Below, piece after piece: positions 26,392 to 63,539 of a stretch of DNA of 64,000 nucleotides. A program made the position numbers and the translations under genes. Source of the stretch: Camelus dromedarius. Taxonomy: Eukaryota. The stretch lies in assembly GCF_036321535.1 (NCBI RefSeq), contig NC_087436.1:50284001-50348000 (forward strand), in the 5' to 3' direction. The notes beneath the pieces were generated by a model. The model worked only from the letters and a program-made list of their open reading frames with translations. It searched no databases and was not told the DNA's origin. Position 1 is the stretch's first letter. Every line of letters begins with the position of its first letter.

Positions 26392-26940
26392 CACTAACGT
26401 TTATTGAGGTCTCCCTCCTGTCTTGTGCTGCTGAAAGGCTGTTGAAACTACTCATCCCCATAATTACCCTGTAAACTAGATTTTTTTAAACATTTTTTAT
26501 TGATTTATAATCATTTTACAATGTTGTGTCAAATTCCAGTGTAGAGCACAATTTTTCAGTTATACATGAACATACATATATTCATTGTCGCATTTTTTTT
26601 TCTGTGAGCGACCATAAGATCTTGTATATATTTCCCTGTGCTATACAGTATAATCTTGTTTATCTATTCTACAATTTTGAAATCCCAGTCTATCTCTTCC
26701 CACCCCCCCACCTCCTTGGCAACCACAAGTTTGTATTCTATGTCTGTGAGTCTATTTCTGTTTTGTATTTATGCTTAGTGAAGTAAGCCAGAGAGAGAAA
26801 GAAAAATACCGTATGAGATCACTCATATGTGGAATCTAAAAAAAATTAAAAAATAAAAACTAGATTTTTTTAAATCTTCATTTTTAAGTGAAGAAATCAA
26901 GGCTCGGAGCGTTCAAGTGTTTTGGGGGGGTTGCTAACAT
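26392..26940 (-). mobile_element. MIR split by the inverted L1
   Basis: ctaacgtttattgag...cataattaccctgtaa on the left; catttttaagtgaagaaatcaaggctcggag on the right. Confidence 0.65.
26491..26856 (-). mobile_element. Young 5'-inverted (twin-primed) L1 inserted into a MIR
   Basis: Minus-strand 3' UTR at 26491-~26770 joined to a plus-strand upstream segment at ~26771-26856. Perfect 18-bp TSD AAACTAGATTTTTTTAAA at 26473-26490 and 26857-26874. Confidence 0.92.
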
Positions 26941-28296: not shown

Positions 28297-28844
28297 ATGG
28301 CTTCGCTCCCCGCAGCCGCGAACTGGACGGAAGGTGCAGGAACAGCGGGAGCGGACGCCGGGAGCCCGAGCGCTGCGTTCCAGCCAGGGGCAGGCACGGG
28401 GGTGGCTGAGCCTGGGTGGCTGCAACTGCTAGTCCAAGCTGGCAATCTTTCTGCTTCCTCCTCCACGTTGGGACTGGCCGCCGCCACCCCGGCGCCTTCG
28501 CAGCCCCTGGCCAACCTCACCAACCAGTTCGTGCAGCCGTCCTGGCGCATCGCGCTCTGGTCCCTAGCGTACGGCGTGGTGGTGGCCGTGGCGGTCTTCG
28601 GGAATCTTATCGTCATCTGGATCATCCTGGCCCACAAGCGCATGAGGACCGTTACCAACTACTTCCTCGTGAACTTGGCTTTCTCCGATGCCTCCATGGC
28701 CGCCTTCAACACCTTGGTCAACTTCATCTATGCGCTTCACAGCGAGTGGTACTTCGGCGCCAACTATTGTCGCTTCCAGAACTTCTTTCCTATCACAGCG
28801 GTGTTCGCCAGCATCTACTCTATGACGGCCATAGCGGTGGACAG
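28297..28844 (+). CDS. TACR3: Tachykinin receptor 3 (NK3R) coding exon 1: N-terminus, TM1-TM3, up to the DR of DRY
   Basis: ATG at 28297 in strong Kozak context (gcgATGG). Translation [10 protein letters not shown]...[18 protein letters not shown]...[24 protein letters not shown]...SMTAIAVDR is diagnostic of NK3R. Ends at GACAG|GTGAGG donor, 548 nt, phase 2. Confidence 0.98.
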
Positions 28845-33589: not shown

Positions 33590-35255
33590 CTGTATTTCCA
33601 TTTCCTCACCTGCTATTTGCTTCTCAAGGCATTCAAATCTGAACTCTTTTCCCAACACTCTATCCAAAGAGCCTCCCTGAGGAATCTGGTGAGCACTTTT
33701 CAGTCCTAAATTTCCTTGACCTATCAGTAGAATTCCTCACAGGAGGTTACTGCCTCTTGGCTTCCAACTTTCCTGACCACCTCCCTCCCTCCTCAGACTC
33801 TTTTGCATGGATGTATTTTTGATTCTCTGCCTCTATGTACTGATTAAATGCATAGGTTCCTCAGTGCCAAATCCTGGCCCTGATTTTGTCCTTACTTAGT
33901 CTCCTCTCCCAAGTGATCTCATTCAAACCCATGGCTCCATTTTTCACTTTTGAATGAAGAGTTTCCATCTTTTTCTATTATCTAATTGGTTTTCTTATGG
34001 ATTATAGAAGATACATAGTAATCCATACAATAAAATAGATGAATATTAATAAATGAAAAATTAAAACTGGAGAAAATAGAAAATGAGAGCAACACCAGAG
34101 TGAATTTGTAATGTGGACATTCAGGTCAAAGACTCCTAATCGTTTACGGAAGTTAGACTTCAAACATGTCTCTGAGACTCTTGATGAACACACAAAAAAG
34201 AAAATACAGTTAGTAATATGGCTTGCACTCCCATAAAAGCAATATATACACATTCCTTGAGGGCTTAGGAACTTCCGATATATGAATTTCAAGAAATGTT
34301 TTGTATGGTTAGTTAAGAGGACAGTGTCCTCAACCACAGTGTCATAAATGCAAAAGAAGATTTCCCACAGGTGTTTGTTTAGCATTTCTCTGAGAAGGTC
34401 AAAGGCTTGTGCCAAAGCAGAACTCAGTGAATGAAGTTCTCAAGAATCCATCCAGTTGTTCAAATAGCTCCCAAATCTGGGGGTATAGCTCAGTGGTAGA
34501 GCACTTGACTGCAAATAGCTCCCAAATCTGTTACTTTCTTTCTATCACTACCCCTACTTCCCTAATACAAGCTACCATCACATCTTTCCTGGCCTACTGA
34601 AAAAGTCTCCTAACTGGCCCCCTCACATCCAGTCTTAATCCACCCTAGCATATGTAATCCATCTAAACATACGTAAGAACATGTTTCTGCACCCTTTCTT
34701 AGAATGCTGTAATGTTTTCCCAAGTTCTTATGAGAAGAATATTCTTACCCCAGACAGTAGTGCCTTGTATAGCCTGATCCCATGACCTGTCCGACTTCAA
34801 CTGATACCATAACTCAACTGTCCTAATCTATGTTCTAGCCATTCTGATCCTCTTTCAAGTCCCAAAATTTATGATGCTATCTTTTTGCCATAAAGCCTTA
34901 ATTAAACACGATTTTCCTTCTATTTCAAATTCCCTTCTACCAATTCCTCGTCAGCTGAATGTACTCCTCATTTAGATAACAGCTCAAATGTCACTTTCAA
35001 AGAGAAACCTTCCATAAGCCTCCCAATTTAAATGTCCCTTTATAGGTTCTCTTAGTACATATTAGTCATAGCATTTTTACATATTAAATTTCGCATTTAT
35101 ACTTAAGAATATGTGATTAATAATCTCCCCTAATAAGCTTGTAAACATTATGAAGACAAGTTCAGTTCTGTTCTTAGTCCTCTTTGCATCCTATGCCTCT
35201 CACGCTGGCTTGTACATGGTAAGTGCACAATCCAGACTGCTGAATAAATGAATCA
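33590..35255 (+). mobile_element. Fragmented L2 LINE hosting the tRNA-half insertion
   Basis: ttccttgacctatcagtagaatt, gtgatctcattcaaacccatggct, aagctaccatcacatctttcctggcctactg, cagctcaaatgtcact, terminal tgaataaatgaat. The 33970-34430 portion is unassigned. Confidence 0.7.
34479..34513 (+). pseudogene. Tailless retrocopy of the 5' half of tRNA-Cys(GCA)
   Basis: GGGGGTATAGCTCAGTGGTAGAGCACTTGACTGCA matches the 5' 35 nt of mammalian tRNA-Cys through the GCA anticodon. Flanked by the perfect direct repeat CAAATAGCTCCCAAATCTG (34461-34479, 34512-34530). Confidence 0.9.
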
Positions 35256-37407: not shown

Positions 37408-37539
37408 TATTTGTAGTCATTCACTCCACAGATACTTCTTGAGTACCTTCTAAGTACTAAACAAACATTGTAAAGCTATTTTTATTCATGGGAATAAGCA
37501 AAATAAATATGTCCCATACTCTAAAGAAACTGTAATTAA

Positions 37540-38400
37540 TAGCTCCACTTGAACCCCCTCAGCTGTATTTCAGAGTCCCAAATCCAACAACCTGTTGGAC
37601 TTCACCATTTGAATGTCTAATAAGCATCTCAGAATTTACACGTTCCAAACTAAGTTCCTGCCATTCCTCCAAAACTTACTCCTCCTTCTATCTTCTGAGG
37701 TCAAAATCTGAACCTTAGGTCAGAACTCTTGGAATTATTCTCAGCTCATCTCTTCTTTCATACTCTATATCCAATCAATCAGCAAATCTAATCACCTCTA
37801 CTTTCAAAACATATGTAGAATCTAATCACTCTTTAAGATGTCTATTGTTGCCTCCCTCATCCAAGTCAGTATCATTTCTCATCTAACTGGTTTCCCTACC
37901 CCTGCTCTTGTTCCCCTTTGGTTTGTTCTCAGTGCAACAAGTAGAGTGATCCTGTAATGAGTCAAATCTTATAACCCCTCTACAAATCCTCCAATGGCTC
38001 CCCAGTTCTCTCAGGATAGAAATCAAAGTTCTTACAATTTATAGTAGCTGGTCCTTTGTAACTTTATGACATTATCTTCTACTACTCACCTCTCCACCGC
38101 CCTGCTCCAACCTGCTCTGCTCCACCATCAGATACTAAGTATGTTTCCATCTTGGGATTTTGCACTCTGTGTGAAACACTCTTCCTTCATATAAGCCGCA
38201 TTGTTCATTACCTGTACTACCTCTGAACCCTGAATACTCTATTTAAAACTGCTTTAATTTTTTTCTTTATCACATATATAACCTTCTAAAATATTACATA
38301 ATTAGTTCATCTGTAATGTTTATTGTTTTTTGCTACTGGACTGTAAGTTCCACGAGGACAAGGCTAGACCTGTGCCTCAACTGAGTAAATGAATAATAAG
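37540..38400 (+). mobile_element. L2 LINE 3' portion
   Basis: tgaatgtctaataagcatctca, atccaatcaatcagcaaatc, cctccaatggctcccc, tgtaagttccacgaggaca, terminal aatgaat. Confidence 0.85.
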
Positions 38401-49529: not shown

Positions 49530-50076
<547 letters not shown>

Positions 50077-52037: not shown

Positions 52038-55000
52038 TAAATTGTGGCACATCAGAGAAGGAAAACACCTAATTATGGCAATTTAATATAGTAAGCTTTG
52101 ATGCTTTACTCCTACTTCTCTTTTTTCATTGTTTTATTTCTTTTTATCAAAATTTTATTTTACTTTCCTTTTGTCTTCTATAAGCCACTGTCCATGTATA
52201 ATATCAGTTTGTGATAGAACAGTCTCTTCCTTACAGAAAGACTTTTTATTACCTTTTGCAGAGTATTCTTAATTACTCCACCATAAACTTCTGAAATTTC
52301 CCTTTGGGAGTCCCAGTTGATTGCTCTCTGTAGCTCTAGTCATCTTTTTCCTTTATTGAACAGAATGCCTTTGATGTACTATATAATCTTTCAGAAGTTT
52401 CATTTATCCCAGGAATGACACATTAAACAAGAAAACCTATCAAAATTATTATAGTGATGTTTTACTAGGATTATTTTTTTCATTAAGTTTTTTTCTGTCT
52501 ACCACTATGTGACTCAATGAGTGAGATTTTTTTTTTTATAAATGTGTGCAGTTAAAAAAGAATCTTAGAGTCATCTATTCTATCTTCCTCTCTCCAGTTG
52601 GTGAGTATCTAGTACAAATCAGGGAGGTTTTTCCAAGGATAAGCAAATCGTACTGATTATGCCACTTACTATTTATTCCACTTGTGATTCATTTATTTAT
52701 GTAGAACTACAATCAGCTACATGGACACTTCCCTTAAAAAACACTTGGCATTTTTAATCTTTCCATTTATTTGCTGCCATAGTCTTTCAATGGTATGAGT
52801 AGTTATATGCACAGGATAAAACAATGTTGAGCCACCGTAAATTCAGATGGAGTAACCATTTCATCTCTTCTGCATGGTCTAGACATTGCTTAAAAAAACA
52901 CTCAACAATTTAAAAACCACTTACCTACAGACACTCACTTAACAATGATAAATAAGGTTTTAAGACTAGATCAATCTAATGTAGAAAATGGATTCTATCT
53001 TAACACTAGTATGTTTTTCCTTTGTTACTGACAAACAAAGCATGTTTGGTTAATATTTTATCATGATGTCTAGTATTTGAAAACAATTTTTTCACATCAG
53101 TTTAGTCATTTCAGCCTATAATATACATAATTTCATTATATTTCTGTATGGAAAAAAACCTTAAAAATGAAGTACACAAACAACCAAACTATCACATTAC
53201 AAAATTAAAAAAAGAATCTGAGAACTACCAGAACTTCAATAACATGGTCATCTTGTATAAAAAGTTTCTCCTTATAATTTCAACCCTCACTTTCTAACAT
53301 CTTGCTCATATTGCATCCTTTTTTAGAGAAACATTTTCTACCAGCTATGTTCTAGGCATAATCATATTAAATAACTGATGTGATGTATTATATTTCAGAA
53401 GAATTTGTCTTAATCTTTCCCACTTAGTCTCTTGTCTTTTATTTCTTTCCTGCTGGTTTAAGCATCTTTTTAAAAAACATTTTCCCCTGTTCAATTCTAG
53501 ACAAATTAAGTTCAGAAATTATAGATTATAGATCCTTTTCCTTCATATACATGTAACATTTTTCTAGGAAAAAGTGAAAATTTAATGAGTTCTCCTTTGA
53601 GTTGAGTCCCAGAAGAAACAAAAGCAAAAGGAACTGTTTTTATATTTGCCCCCACATAACAGATGAGAGTAAGGCATAAATATTCCTTTTTACTTCATTA
53701 CTGTATAATTTCAAAGTACAAATATCAATTCAAACTGAGAGTGTGACTCTTCTAGAAACTTTCAAAAATTAAGACATTAAGTCCATATTTCTTTTTCTCA
53801 GATTGTGTTCTGGGCATAAAATGACACATGTGCATGGACTTTCACAATAAATCACCTTGTCCTTGGATTTCTTTCACAGTCACTTAGTGGTACGACCATC
53901 AATATCTCAGAATTAACACCCATTCTGTCCAAAAAAAATTTAAATTTCAAAATATAAATAGCTCTTCTCAAATTTCTTTTTAAATTTGAATTAAAATATT
54001 GTCTGCTATGATTTGGAATACAGTTATTTCTAGTAATCATGCTATTTTCATATTTTAGTATGACTACCTATATCAAAGATATGAATCGTACCCTGGATGG
54101 GCCATTTAATTATATGCTGTCTCCTAGAGAATACATCATTGATTTTACAGATCGTACTTGAGAGATAAGAGAGTATCGGTTATAGGAGTACAAATTCATC
54201 ACGACTGTTGGGAAAAAACAACTCCGTAAACAACTATGAGACAGCCTAATACTAATAAAAGAATAGTGGTTGTTGATTGAGCTCTCATATACACATGAAC
54301 AAGAATAAAGAAAAGCTTAAGAAATTTTAGTCAAATCACTGAGAAGATCTTTGCAACTACTGAGAAACATTGATTCCATTTTTCTTTCTCCCACAATCTT
54401 TAGGAACTGTGCTCAGTTTCAAGCCTCGTAGATTAAATTCTCTGAAGAACAGCCAGTAGAAATAAATTATATGTCTAAGTTATATAGAACCTAGCAATGT
54501 CTAAAAATTAAACTAATATGAAACTTTTAGATAATTTAGGATTAATAACCCCCACTTGCCCTTGACATTTGTGCTGCCTAAGTACATACATAGTTTGAAA
54601 ATAATACCAGTGGTTCTATCCAGTAACAGGTAAAAAGACAAAATATTAGCCTTGAGAAAAAAGTTAATACTTCTAGAACTATTTCCTCACCATTAAAATT
54701 GGAGTATTGAACCTGAAAATCAGTATTAAAATTCTATGGCTGCATGAAGCTTCTTAAACCCTAGGAGACAATCTGTAGGATTGTCTAACATTTGATTCAC
54801 ATAATATAGAACTAGGTTTTCCGAAAGAGTTAGCAAGCACGTTAATATACTCTTTCTTACATAATGTATTTTACAATTTTAAAGGACAAAGTATGCCTCA
54901 TAACTCAACCAAATGTATCCTTAATTTATAGTTTTCTGAGTTTTAAGATCCTGTATGATATGTACCCATTGACTTTAAATTTGTCTGTTAAGTGTGTATA

Positions 55001-60194: not shown

Positions 60195-60420
60195 AGCACT
60201 TATTATGCTTGTTATGTGCCAGAGACTTGATGTATGTGCTTTAAATAGATTAACCAATTGAATTCTGACTACTGCAGAAGGGAGGCACTATTGTTATTTT
60301 CATTTGACAGATGAAGAAACAGTCATTAGATGAGTTAAGTAACTGCCTAGTCTATGGAATGATAGAGTCAGGATTTGAACCCAGAAAGTCTTGATTCTAG
60401 AGAATGTGTTCTTCACTTCC
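60195..60420 (-). mobile_element. MIR
   Basis: tatgtgccagagact...catttgacagatgaagaaac...gttaagtaactgcc...agagtcaggatttgaaccca. Confidence 0.8.
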
Positions 60421-61919
60421 CTATTAGACTGATCATTTCTATACTTTGCTTAAAGGGGGTGGGGCTAAATAAGACAAAGTAATTATTTTCTTATTTTTCT
60501 ATTTGTTTAATTACCAGTAGTACAACTGAATAATATTATTGTATTATTTATTGACATATTCTGAGTTAAAAGCTTTTGTAGATCAAACTAACCAAAATAT
60601 ATGACATTGTCTTTAAGGAAAAGTTATTTCCCAGTACCAACAGTCAACTTAAAATTTATTTCCAGTGGCAGTAATCAGCTTAAAAATTAATTCTTAGAAA
60701 ACAATTTATCAGTAAACTGGGACTACATGCAGTAACGAAAATGAGAAGGCATCTATTTTAGATATGCAAAAATGTACACTAAAATATGTTTTTGATAGTT
60801 AAAAACTGTAAATCAGCTCAATATATAGCTAAAGCTCCTTTTAATGTATATTGAATAAAAGCAATACACAATCCCCCCTAACAAATTCTCCTTAGTTAAT
60901 ATAACACCCTAAAGCATCCTGATAGTGATGGTTTTGCTGCAACTAAAGCAATTCTACCATAAATACATTGCCACTGGCAAATATCAGTAGACAAATATAA
61001 ATGTAATTGTTTCTTATATTTGGAGAAAATCTAGGTTTGTAAAGTCAAATGAGCATGATGTTTTATATGTGCCTAAGACAGAAAGAAAACTAGGAAGAAG
61101 AGTGATAGATATGATGACACAAAACAAAAGAGATGCAAAGTTTTGTAATTCAGTGGAAAGAGAACTGGGACTCAGGACAGATGAATGCCAGACCTGGTAT
61201 TATATTTCAGCATTATTTTGTATAAATCACCACTTTTCTCTGGGCTCATTGTCTTATTTGTAAAATGAGAAGATTGAACTAGATTACCTCTGAGTTCTCT
61301 TCCAAATATAAATACCCATGATTGAGATTCATCAAATATTTATTTAAAATCTAATATGTACTAGGCATTGTGCACAAATGATTTTACTTAAACCTTACAA
61401 AATCCTATAAAAGAAGATGTATTTCAGTCAGAAATATTAGTGGCCCAGGTCATAGGAAATTTTCTAATGGGCTCTGTATAGTAGATTTTAGTTAGAGCGA
61501 AAGATTTCCCTCACAATTTTGACCCCATTCAAGTAACCAGTCACCCATATTAAACTGGTGTCTGCAAGTGATGCATTATGCAGGGTTTGGGATGGAAAGA
61601 CCAACACTTAAGGTCAGTTCAGCACAGAGTCCCCTCCACTTGAAAATAAAATTTATTCTTCTAATTTGTAAGATTTCAGTCCCTACACTTTATTCTCTCC
61701 AGTCTCAGCCACCCCTCCATCTCCTTCTTCTTCTACCCCAGCCCTATCTATTTGGAGAAAAGAACTATGTGCTTTGACATATGCTTAAGTAAGTGTTTCG
61801 TAGGAGTACTAATGGGACAGAAAACAGGGAGGAAAATCACAGGAAGCATTAATACAAATAGTATCAAATTCTACTGCACTGTAATACTGTTTATATGTAG
61901 TAGTTCTGTGTCCACTACT

Positions 61920-62020: not shown

Positions 62021-63539
62021 GCATACTAGATGGCAAGGCAAAGGAGCAATAATGGAGTCCAAAACTAGCTCAGAATCTATAGGGAAAAAATTTTCCAATT
62101 TTATAACCTTTCATAGAACACAGTCTATACAGTATTTTATTTAACACTAACAAGAATATTCTAGGATAGATAGGAAGGGTTTTATCTTCAGAGATACATA
62201 AGCGAAAACATTGAAGCTAGAGAAGTTAACAGTGAAATAGAAAGGGATCAGTGGGAAAACTTTCAAAATAATCATCAGTTTGGTGACTTATTAGATTTAA
62301 AGACTGAGGGAGAGGAAATGGAAAAATTCTATTTAAAGATTCAATCACTAAGAAAATTGGGACATTATTGACAAGAAATATGGAATCTGTGAGAAAATGC
62401 AGCAATCTTGGGTGAAGCAGATAAATTCATTTTAGGAGAATCCAGCAAGATGGAAATGGCCTGTATGCAGCTGGAGGTATGCTCCAGCAGAGAGAATGCT
62501 TACGTATGCTGATGAAGATAACACGCTATTACAGAACATTTCATACATCTCTAATCTATCAGCACAGGGTATTTTGTACCCTGATTAGAAATGTTCATAA
62601 GAACATTCTATCACACCCTCTGAATGACACAATAATTGTGTCACCTTCTATGAATATAGGTGAGCACAAATTCCTCTACTCACATCTCCTGTTTTTCCCT
62701 CCAAATCTCCACACCCTCAGCCACCTGAAGCCCAGGTCAGAGAAGTAGAGAAAAATTCTTTTGCCAGACCTCTCAGCTTCTCTTTATTTCATCATTTCTA
62801 CCTTTTATTCTTTCTAATTTAGTTAAAAGAAGATTTTAAACCAATGCAGAAAAATCCATTGATAACACTATAGCCTCTTTACTAGAGATTAACAGTTAAT
62901 AACAGGTTAACAAAATGTCCTTTGAAAAAGATGAGCTGCTAATTGACAGTTCACACAACTATTTTTTTGCTCTCAAAAGCAGGAGAGTGGATACCATTTG
63001 TCTTCTGTCCCTGTTTCATTTTCCATCATCATCATCCAGCTTGGGTTAATATTAATAAGTAGTATTTTAGCTTCTGACCCTTTGCCAGCAAGAGATGACT
63101 TTATAGTTGTTTATTCAGTTTAGGGATACATTGACTTTTTGATAATAGCCATTCTTACATGGGTGAGGTGAAATCTTGTTGTGGTTTTGATTTTCAAAGT
63201 GATAGACTGATTGATACTGACATTTACAGACTTACTCCAGTTTCTATTTCAAAAGATTCCATTTGTTGGAAAAATAGTCAACTTAGGGAAATCTCTGGCC
63301 AGAAAAATAGAGCAAATACAACTAACCTAAACTCTAAGATAATGAGTTCAAGAAACCACCTGGTGATTTTTTAAATGATTCAACTGAAGAAGGAAATAAT
63401 TTCATTTAAATTCATAGTCAATAAGCTACCATGGATCTTTGTTTATTTATTTAGAAACAAGTGGGCATTAAGATTATAAAATCTAGATATACTTTCCTCC
63501 AGATGTTCAATGTTTCTTTATCTGGTTAATTATTTTTCA

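Follow-up and report, generated by a model that had tools for sequence, protein, structure and literature searches.

The first intron of the neuromedin-K receptor gene TACR3 in the dromedary (Camelus dromedarius) carries a 35-nt 5' piece of tRNA-Cys(GCA), which ends at the anticodon, has no tail and lies between two perfect 19-bp direct repeats. We assign this locus with high confidence to the tailless class of retropseudogenes made by LINE-1 (L1). It was probably produced by L1 target-primed reverse transcription, with priming inside the anticodon loop of a tRNA that was intact and had a processed 5' end. The window analysed is a 64,000-nt stretch of contig NC_087436.1 (positions 50,284,001 to 50,348,000, forward strand), and all coordinates refer to it. 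The cited papers were accessible in part, and statements drawn from them are limited to those parts. The features on which the argument relies are the following.

26473-26874: insertion of about 370 bp with perfect 18-bp repeats at 26473 and 26857
28297-28844: coding part of TACR3 exon 1 (exon 2 begins at 49887)
28845-49886, plus strand: host intron 1 of TACR3 (neuromedin-K receptor)
34459-34467, plus strand: putative L1 endonuclease site TT/CAAATAG, from comparison of the sequence with the tailless consensus
34461-34479, plus strand: left copy of the 19-bp direct repeat, putative target-site duplication
34479-34513, plus strand: piece of tRNA-Cys(GCA), nt 1-35, with 34/35 identity to 9 tRNA-Cys genes
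34504, plus strand: single mismatch to the closest genes, C at nt 26 where those genes have T
34512-34530, plus strand: right copy of the 19-bp direct repeat
60369-60424, minus strand: next best tRNA-like piece in the window, scoring 89 against 180 for the insert, with a B-box-like motif

Anatomy of the insert and its repeats

The two 19-mers at 34461-34479 and 34512-34530 are identical (100%) and spaced 51 bp apart. The 35-nt insert overlaps the left repeat by a G and the right repeat by CA, exactly as an earlier note on this DNA had described. The target-site duplication measures 16-19 bp, according to whether the shared G and CA are counted with the repeats or with the insert, and because of the shared CA the true 3' end may be nt 33, 34 or 35. 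The insert-plus-repeat structure exceeds chance. The 19-mer pair is the only perfect repeat of at least 19 nt in the window (spacing 26-7000 bp, at least three different letters), and the same search on block shuffles gave 0 repeats in 10/10; the 21-nt core of the insert has a single match in the window against 0 in 100 shuffles.

The insert covers the 5' strand of the acceptor stem, the D-arm with the A box, and the 5' strand and loop of the anticodon arm to the end of the anticodon. No leader, B box, T-arm, oligo(A) or SINE body was found at the insert, which confirms on the sequence the tailless tRNA half at 34479-34513 that the same note had reported; the three A that follow the junction C are part of the right repeat and not a tail. 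From this anatomy we infer both an insertion and a target-site duplication. Since the A box is present and the B box absent, we predict that the element is no Pol III gene and was dead on arrival, a neutral intronic fossil. A functional tRNA gene with a full cloverleaf and T-arm was also considered and rejected: ARAGORN called 0 tRNA genes in the window, and the Rfam tRNA model gave the insert 22.2 bits (E 0.041), short of its gathering score of 29, and aligned well over the 5' half alone.

Identity of the tRNA piece

The first 25 nt of the insert gave at least 119 matches at no fewer than 118 loci in metagenome contigs (39/64 parts), and 118 of the 119 listed matches were compared, one being dropped as too short. 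At least 9 of these 118, which come from metagenome contigs and not from camel, agree with the insert at 34/35 bases. All six of the 9 closest matches that were tested (6/6) were called tRNA-Cys(GCA), and they are animal-type genes. The proposed match to tRNA-Cys(GCA) up to the anticodon is thus supported and can be refined to 34/35, with C for T at nt 26. The exact 35-mer had 0 matches in the metagenome contigs, which thus yielded no gene carrying C at nt 26; the C is either a variant of the source gene or a later change. In the cloverleaf, nt 26 stands opposite G42, where a C would change a wobble into a Watson-Crick pair.

As a reference we used a 72-nt gene (L111), whose cloverleaf is that of ARAGORN, the minimum-energy fold having given none. 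The insert lacks 37/72 nt of this gene and ends in the anticodon loop of its cloverleaf. At the other end, the copy begins at tRNA base 1 (nt 2 if the shared G is assigned to the repeat) without a leader, so the template was probably 5'-processed. Three other metagenome loci carry a tRNA-Cys 5' part but cease to follow the full gene shortly after the anticodon, owing to a deletion in L020 and possibly, in L056 and L103, to an intron or a truncation.

The insert might instead be a 3'-truncated copy of the head of a tRNA-derived camelid SINE, e.g., vic-1. Vic-1 is a simple tRNA-like camel SINE, and simple SINEs differ from their own tRNA by few diagnostic changes (PMC3531059), while the insert shows one difference from the compared tRNA-Cys genes. 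We nevertheless give a SINE head only a very slight probability. The 34/35 identity to tRNA-Cys includes the whole 5' strand and loop of the anticodon arm, the C at nt 26 is compatible with the stem, no second copy of the 21-nt core exists in the window within 3 mismatches, and the next best tRNA-like piece there reaches half the score of the insert. A tRNA-derived SINE has A and B boxes, a tail and many copies, and here we found an A box only and one copy in the window. Vic-1 itself derives from tRNA-Ala. The insert shares with vic-1-type simple SINEs a tRNA-like head and L1-type repeats, but it is without B box, body and tail and keeps the tRNA-Cys sequence through the anticodon (PMC3531059). 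Nearly all camelid SINEs are MIRs (PMC8605555).

Membership in the tailless class

Noll et al. (2015; PMC5322556) defined the tailless class on 2,402 human cases, and tailless tRNA retropseudogenes also go back to Schmitz et al. (2004), known here through citation. Kojima (2010; PMC2912911) found 22/25 human- or chimpanzee-specific non-coding RNA retrocopies without poly(A). Like the tailless tRNA retropseudogenes of Noll et al., which are 5'-complete (lacking no more than 5 nt) and measure 30 nt or more, the camel copy starts at nt 1 and has a length of 35 nt. Members of the class have lost 10 nt or more from the 3' end, with a break that falls in a loop or in single-stranded sequence, and here 37/72 nt are absent beyond the anticodon loop. 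Identity to the source is above 69% in the class and 34/35 here, as measured against 9 tRNA-Cys genes from metagenome contigs and not from camel. The flanking repeats, 8-35 nt long and at least 70% identical in the class, are 19 nt long and 100% identical at our locus, and there is no oligo(A) tail in either. In the class, the target can pair with the terminal 2-18 nt of the RNA; at our locus the complementarity covers 2 nt exactly, or 4/5 positions with one wobble.

Compared with the human class, the present case differs in species and locus (camel TACR3 intron 1) and in its target, as TT/CAAATAG fits the tailless target consensus TT/WAAAAWW at only 6/9 positions (PMC5322556). A mechanistic difference from tailless tRNA retropseudogenes was not found in comparison with the accessible part of that paper. 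Its Table S2 contains 72 human tailless copies of tRNA-Cys, whose lengths are coordinate spans and not checked end points: 37/72 span 33-38 nt, six of them exactly 35 nt, and 35/72 span 40-57 nt (33 at 40-46, one of 49 and one of 57) (PMC5322556). Together with the tRNA-Cys identity and the tailless anatomy, the criteria of Noll et al. support the assignment to the described L1 class that had been proposed from the sequence. The locus is an ordinary further member of this class, and both ideas on its template, internal priming and a cleaved half, are already in print.

As for the enzyme, L1 is the likely source because it makes up 7.8-9.0% of camelid genomes as against 0.13% for RTE in dromedary (PMC8605555), and because a second insertion in the window (26473-26874) has a perfect 18-bp repeat. 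An origin outside L1, by break repair or by another LINE (RTE) plus a local tandem duplication, could appeal to the fit of the nick site to the tailless consensus at only 6/9 positions and to the RTE copies that exist in camelids (PMC8605555). This origin is very improbable in our judgement. The repeat length and the junction microhomologies are those of L1 products, the repeats of full-length L1 peaking at 14-16 bp and tailless tRNA copies having short 3' microhomologies (PMC2912911); the tRNA 5' end is exact, and RTE is rare in dromedary.

Template and priming

In the mechanism that we favor, L1 ORF2p would nick the bottom strand at or near TT/CAAAT (34460/34461), and the freed 3' end would pair with tRNA nt 34-38 through four Watson-Crick pairs and one G:T wobble, so that no A-tail would be needed. 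The cDNA synthesis would run from the anticodon to tRNA base 1, the cDNA would join the other strand via the 1-nt G microhomology, and fill-in of a staggered second nick would duplicate 16-19 bp, the whole event taking place in the germline. A target complementarity of 2-18 nt and the argument for internal priming were put forward by Noll et al. (PMC5322556).

The first 5 nt of the right repeat agree with tRNA nt 34-38 at 4/5 positions (two shared, two matches and one G:T wobble position), and three of the five compared positions lie past the junction. GAT follows the anticodon in 92/104 compared GCA-anticodon genes among the matches listed. The same continuation occurs after 46/922 TT/CA sites in the window (5%), and T follows TTCAAA at 25/121 window sites (21%), so that the extra complementarity is weak evidence. 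Methylation of G37 would weaken the wobble pair. The accessible parts of PMC11417395 and PMC10275265 do not establish G37 methylation in tRNA-Cys.

The primer end matches T-loop nt 55-59 at 5/5 positions, better than it matches the anticodon loop, and this site was not used. Including the flank, 34458-34465 equals T-loop nt 52-59 at 8/8 positions, as do 3/918 other TT/CA sites. In addition, 34464-34470 equals tRNA nt 7-13 at 7/7 positions, a match shared by 2775/127122 window 19-mers (2.2%). Both resemblances within 34458-34470 were noticed after the fact, against a window background of 1.0% for nt 52-59 and 2.2% for nt 7-13.

The same L1 reaction could also have taken place on a pre-cut 5' tRNA-Cys half (tiRNA), of which the last 1-2 bases paired with the nicked target. 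The copy ends in the anticodon loop (nt 33-35), where angiogenin cuts and tRNA halves end, and a 5'-tiRNA-Cys with five leading G has been described (PMC9655011), in line with the earlier mention of oligo-G 5' tRNA-Cys halves as known tiRNAs. A 2025 preprint proposes that the half-length tRNA pieces of L1 chimeras come from tRNA halves (10.1101/2025.02.02.635956), and the better T-loop match (5/5, or 8/8 with the flank) would be left unused, as expected if the 3' half was absent. The locus would then be the fossil, in heritable DNA, of an oligo-G 5' tRNA-Cys half that was present, already cleaved, in the camel germline and was used by L1, and the 7-nt agreement of the target with tRNA nt 7-13 may have contributed to holding this half in place. 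We regard both the pre-cut template and the fossil that it would imply as unlikely. The target match extends 3 nt past the junction, with one wobble and a chance of 5-21%; moreover, 35/72 human Cys copies continue past the loop, a length for which a half cut in the loop cannot serve as template (PMC5322556). Priming in the T-loop is rare anyway, with only 1/72 human Cys copies longer than 49 nt (PMC5322556), and a T-loop that was simply unavailable as a priming site also fits its non-use. There was no sign of pre-cut templates for 5S rRNA and U2, the RNAs, not tRNA, on which Noll et al. made these tests (PMC5322556). Of the two templates offered from the sequence at the outset, internal priming is thus modestly favored, and one locus cannot decide between them; an intact tRNA or a cleaved half is a question for all such copies in the genome.

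The relation to known RNAs and chimeras can be stated in the same terms. The 5'-tiRNA-Cys with a terminal oligoguanine motif resembles the insert in running from five leading G through the anticodon loop, but it is a cleaved cytoplasmic RNA, whereas the camel element is a DNA copy without a B box (PMC9655011). Likewise, tRNA/LINE-1 chimeras contain tRNA 5' pieces of half length (nt 1-37) that entered mammalian genomes by reverse transcription; they carry L1, whereas between the camel repeats the tRNA piece stands alone, with no L1 sequence (10.1101/2025.02.02.635956).

Presence in sequencing runs and age

All 73 words sampled from the stretch 34100-34900 are present in 20/24 listed runs, which come from 8 studies and bear two organism labels (A and B). 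One run (X21, organism C, share 0.00) counts as no evidence, and three (X22-X24) are unindexed. Among the 20 complete runs, 14 are flagged as a possible source and 6, from 3 studies, are unflagged. The junctions determine 57 of the 771 possible words; among the 73 sampled, about 5.4 such words are expected, and the probability of having sampled none is about 0.003 if sampling was random. Given the complete word sets, unflagged runs included, and this low probability, an assembly artefact has next to no likelihood.

The runs were chosen for the best share, and the list therefore says nothing on allele frequency. At 0.5% divergence the probability of no difference in 801 nt is 0.018; that both labels hold the stretch in full implies that the animals behind them are very closely related. 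Label A is a single run, itself flagged, and does not establish that the insertion is present in more than one species. If substitution rates of 1-2.5e-9 per site per year are assumed, a 19-bp pair would stay perfect with a probability of 0.62-0.83 after 5 My, 0.20-0.52 after 17 My and 0.02-0.22 after 40 My, and perfect identity of the repeats is compatible with an insertion that took place many million years ago. The suggestion that the insertion is recent therefore holds only loosely, as the pair survives 17 My with a probability of 0.20-0.52, and the suggestions that it may be lineage-specific or polymorphic are unsupported.

Alone, this one more clean example of a described L1 by-product has little weight. 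If an empty allele is found, the locus becomes a usable presence/absence marker for camelid phylogeny. We would also expect that small-RNA reads can be drawn, when mapped, to a genomic sequence that copies a tRNA 5' half almost exactly.

Host gene and genomic setting

The insert lies in sense orientation to TACR3, 5.6 kb inside intron 1. The exon 1 protein is 98% identical to the alpaca protein over residues 1-90, and over the aligned residues the identity is 99% to alpaca and 100% to the Camelus ferus model. This model (P0013) is without 33 N-terminal residues that are present in the window (28297-28844) and in the alpaca protein, probably a gap in the gene model. A literature search, with most subscription journals outside its coverage, found no paper on this locus.

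The flanks at 33600-35050, together with 37530-38000, may be decayed LINE-2; the alignment between these two stretches was not significant. The predicted empty site gave a best nhmmer E of 3.2 against other old repeats in the window, and its local alignment score of 116 was not significant (shuffled mean 113, sd 15). The tRNA-like piece at 60369-60424 may be the head of an old MIR. At 62301-63000 a tile scored higher, but this was rejected as a diffuse chance alignment.

Two pieces of the insertion at 26473-26874, which we presume to be L1, match other repeat copies of the window, one in each orientation, an arrangement like that of a 5'-inverted L1 3' end. A Pfam search on 3 L1-like frames gave one match, RVT_1, with an E of 1.1e-6, just under the cut-off. 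Downstream of TACR3 exon 2 we identified one further small-RNA feature.

52759-52888, plus strand: full-length SNORA20 match, 95 bits

The match is flanked by a 13/14-bp repeat, with copies from 52733 and from 52889 that differ by one A. It has 13 extra nt ahead of the snoRNA and no tail beyond the A run of the repeat itself, and has the appearance of another small-RNA retrocopy within TACR3.
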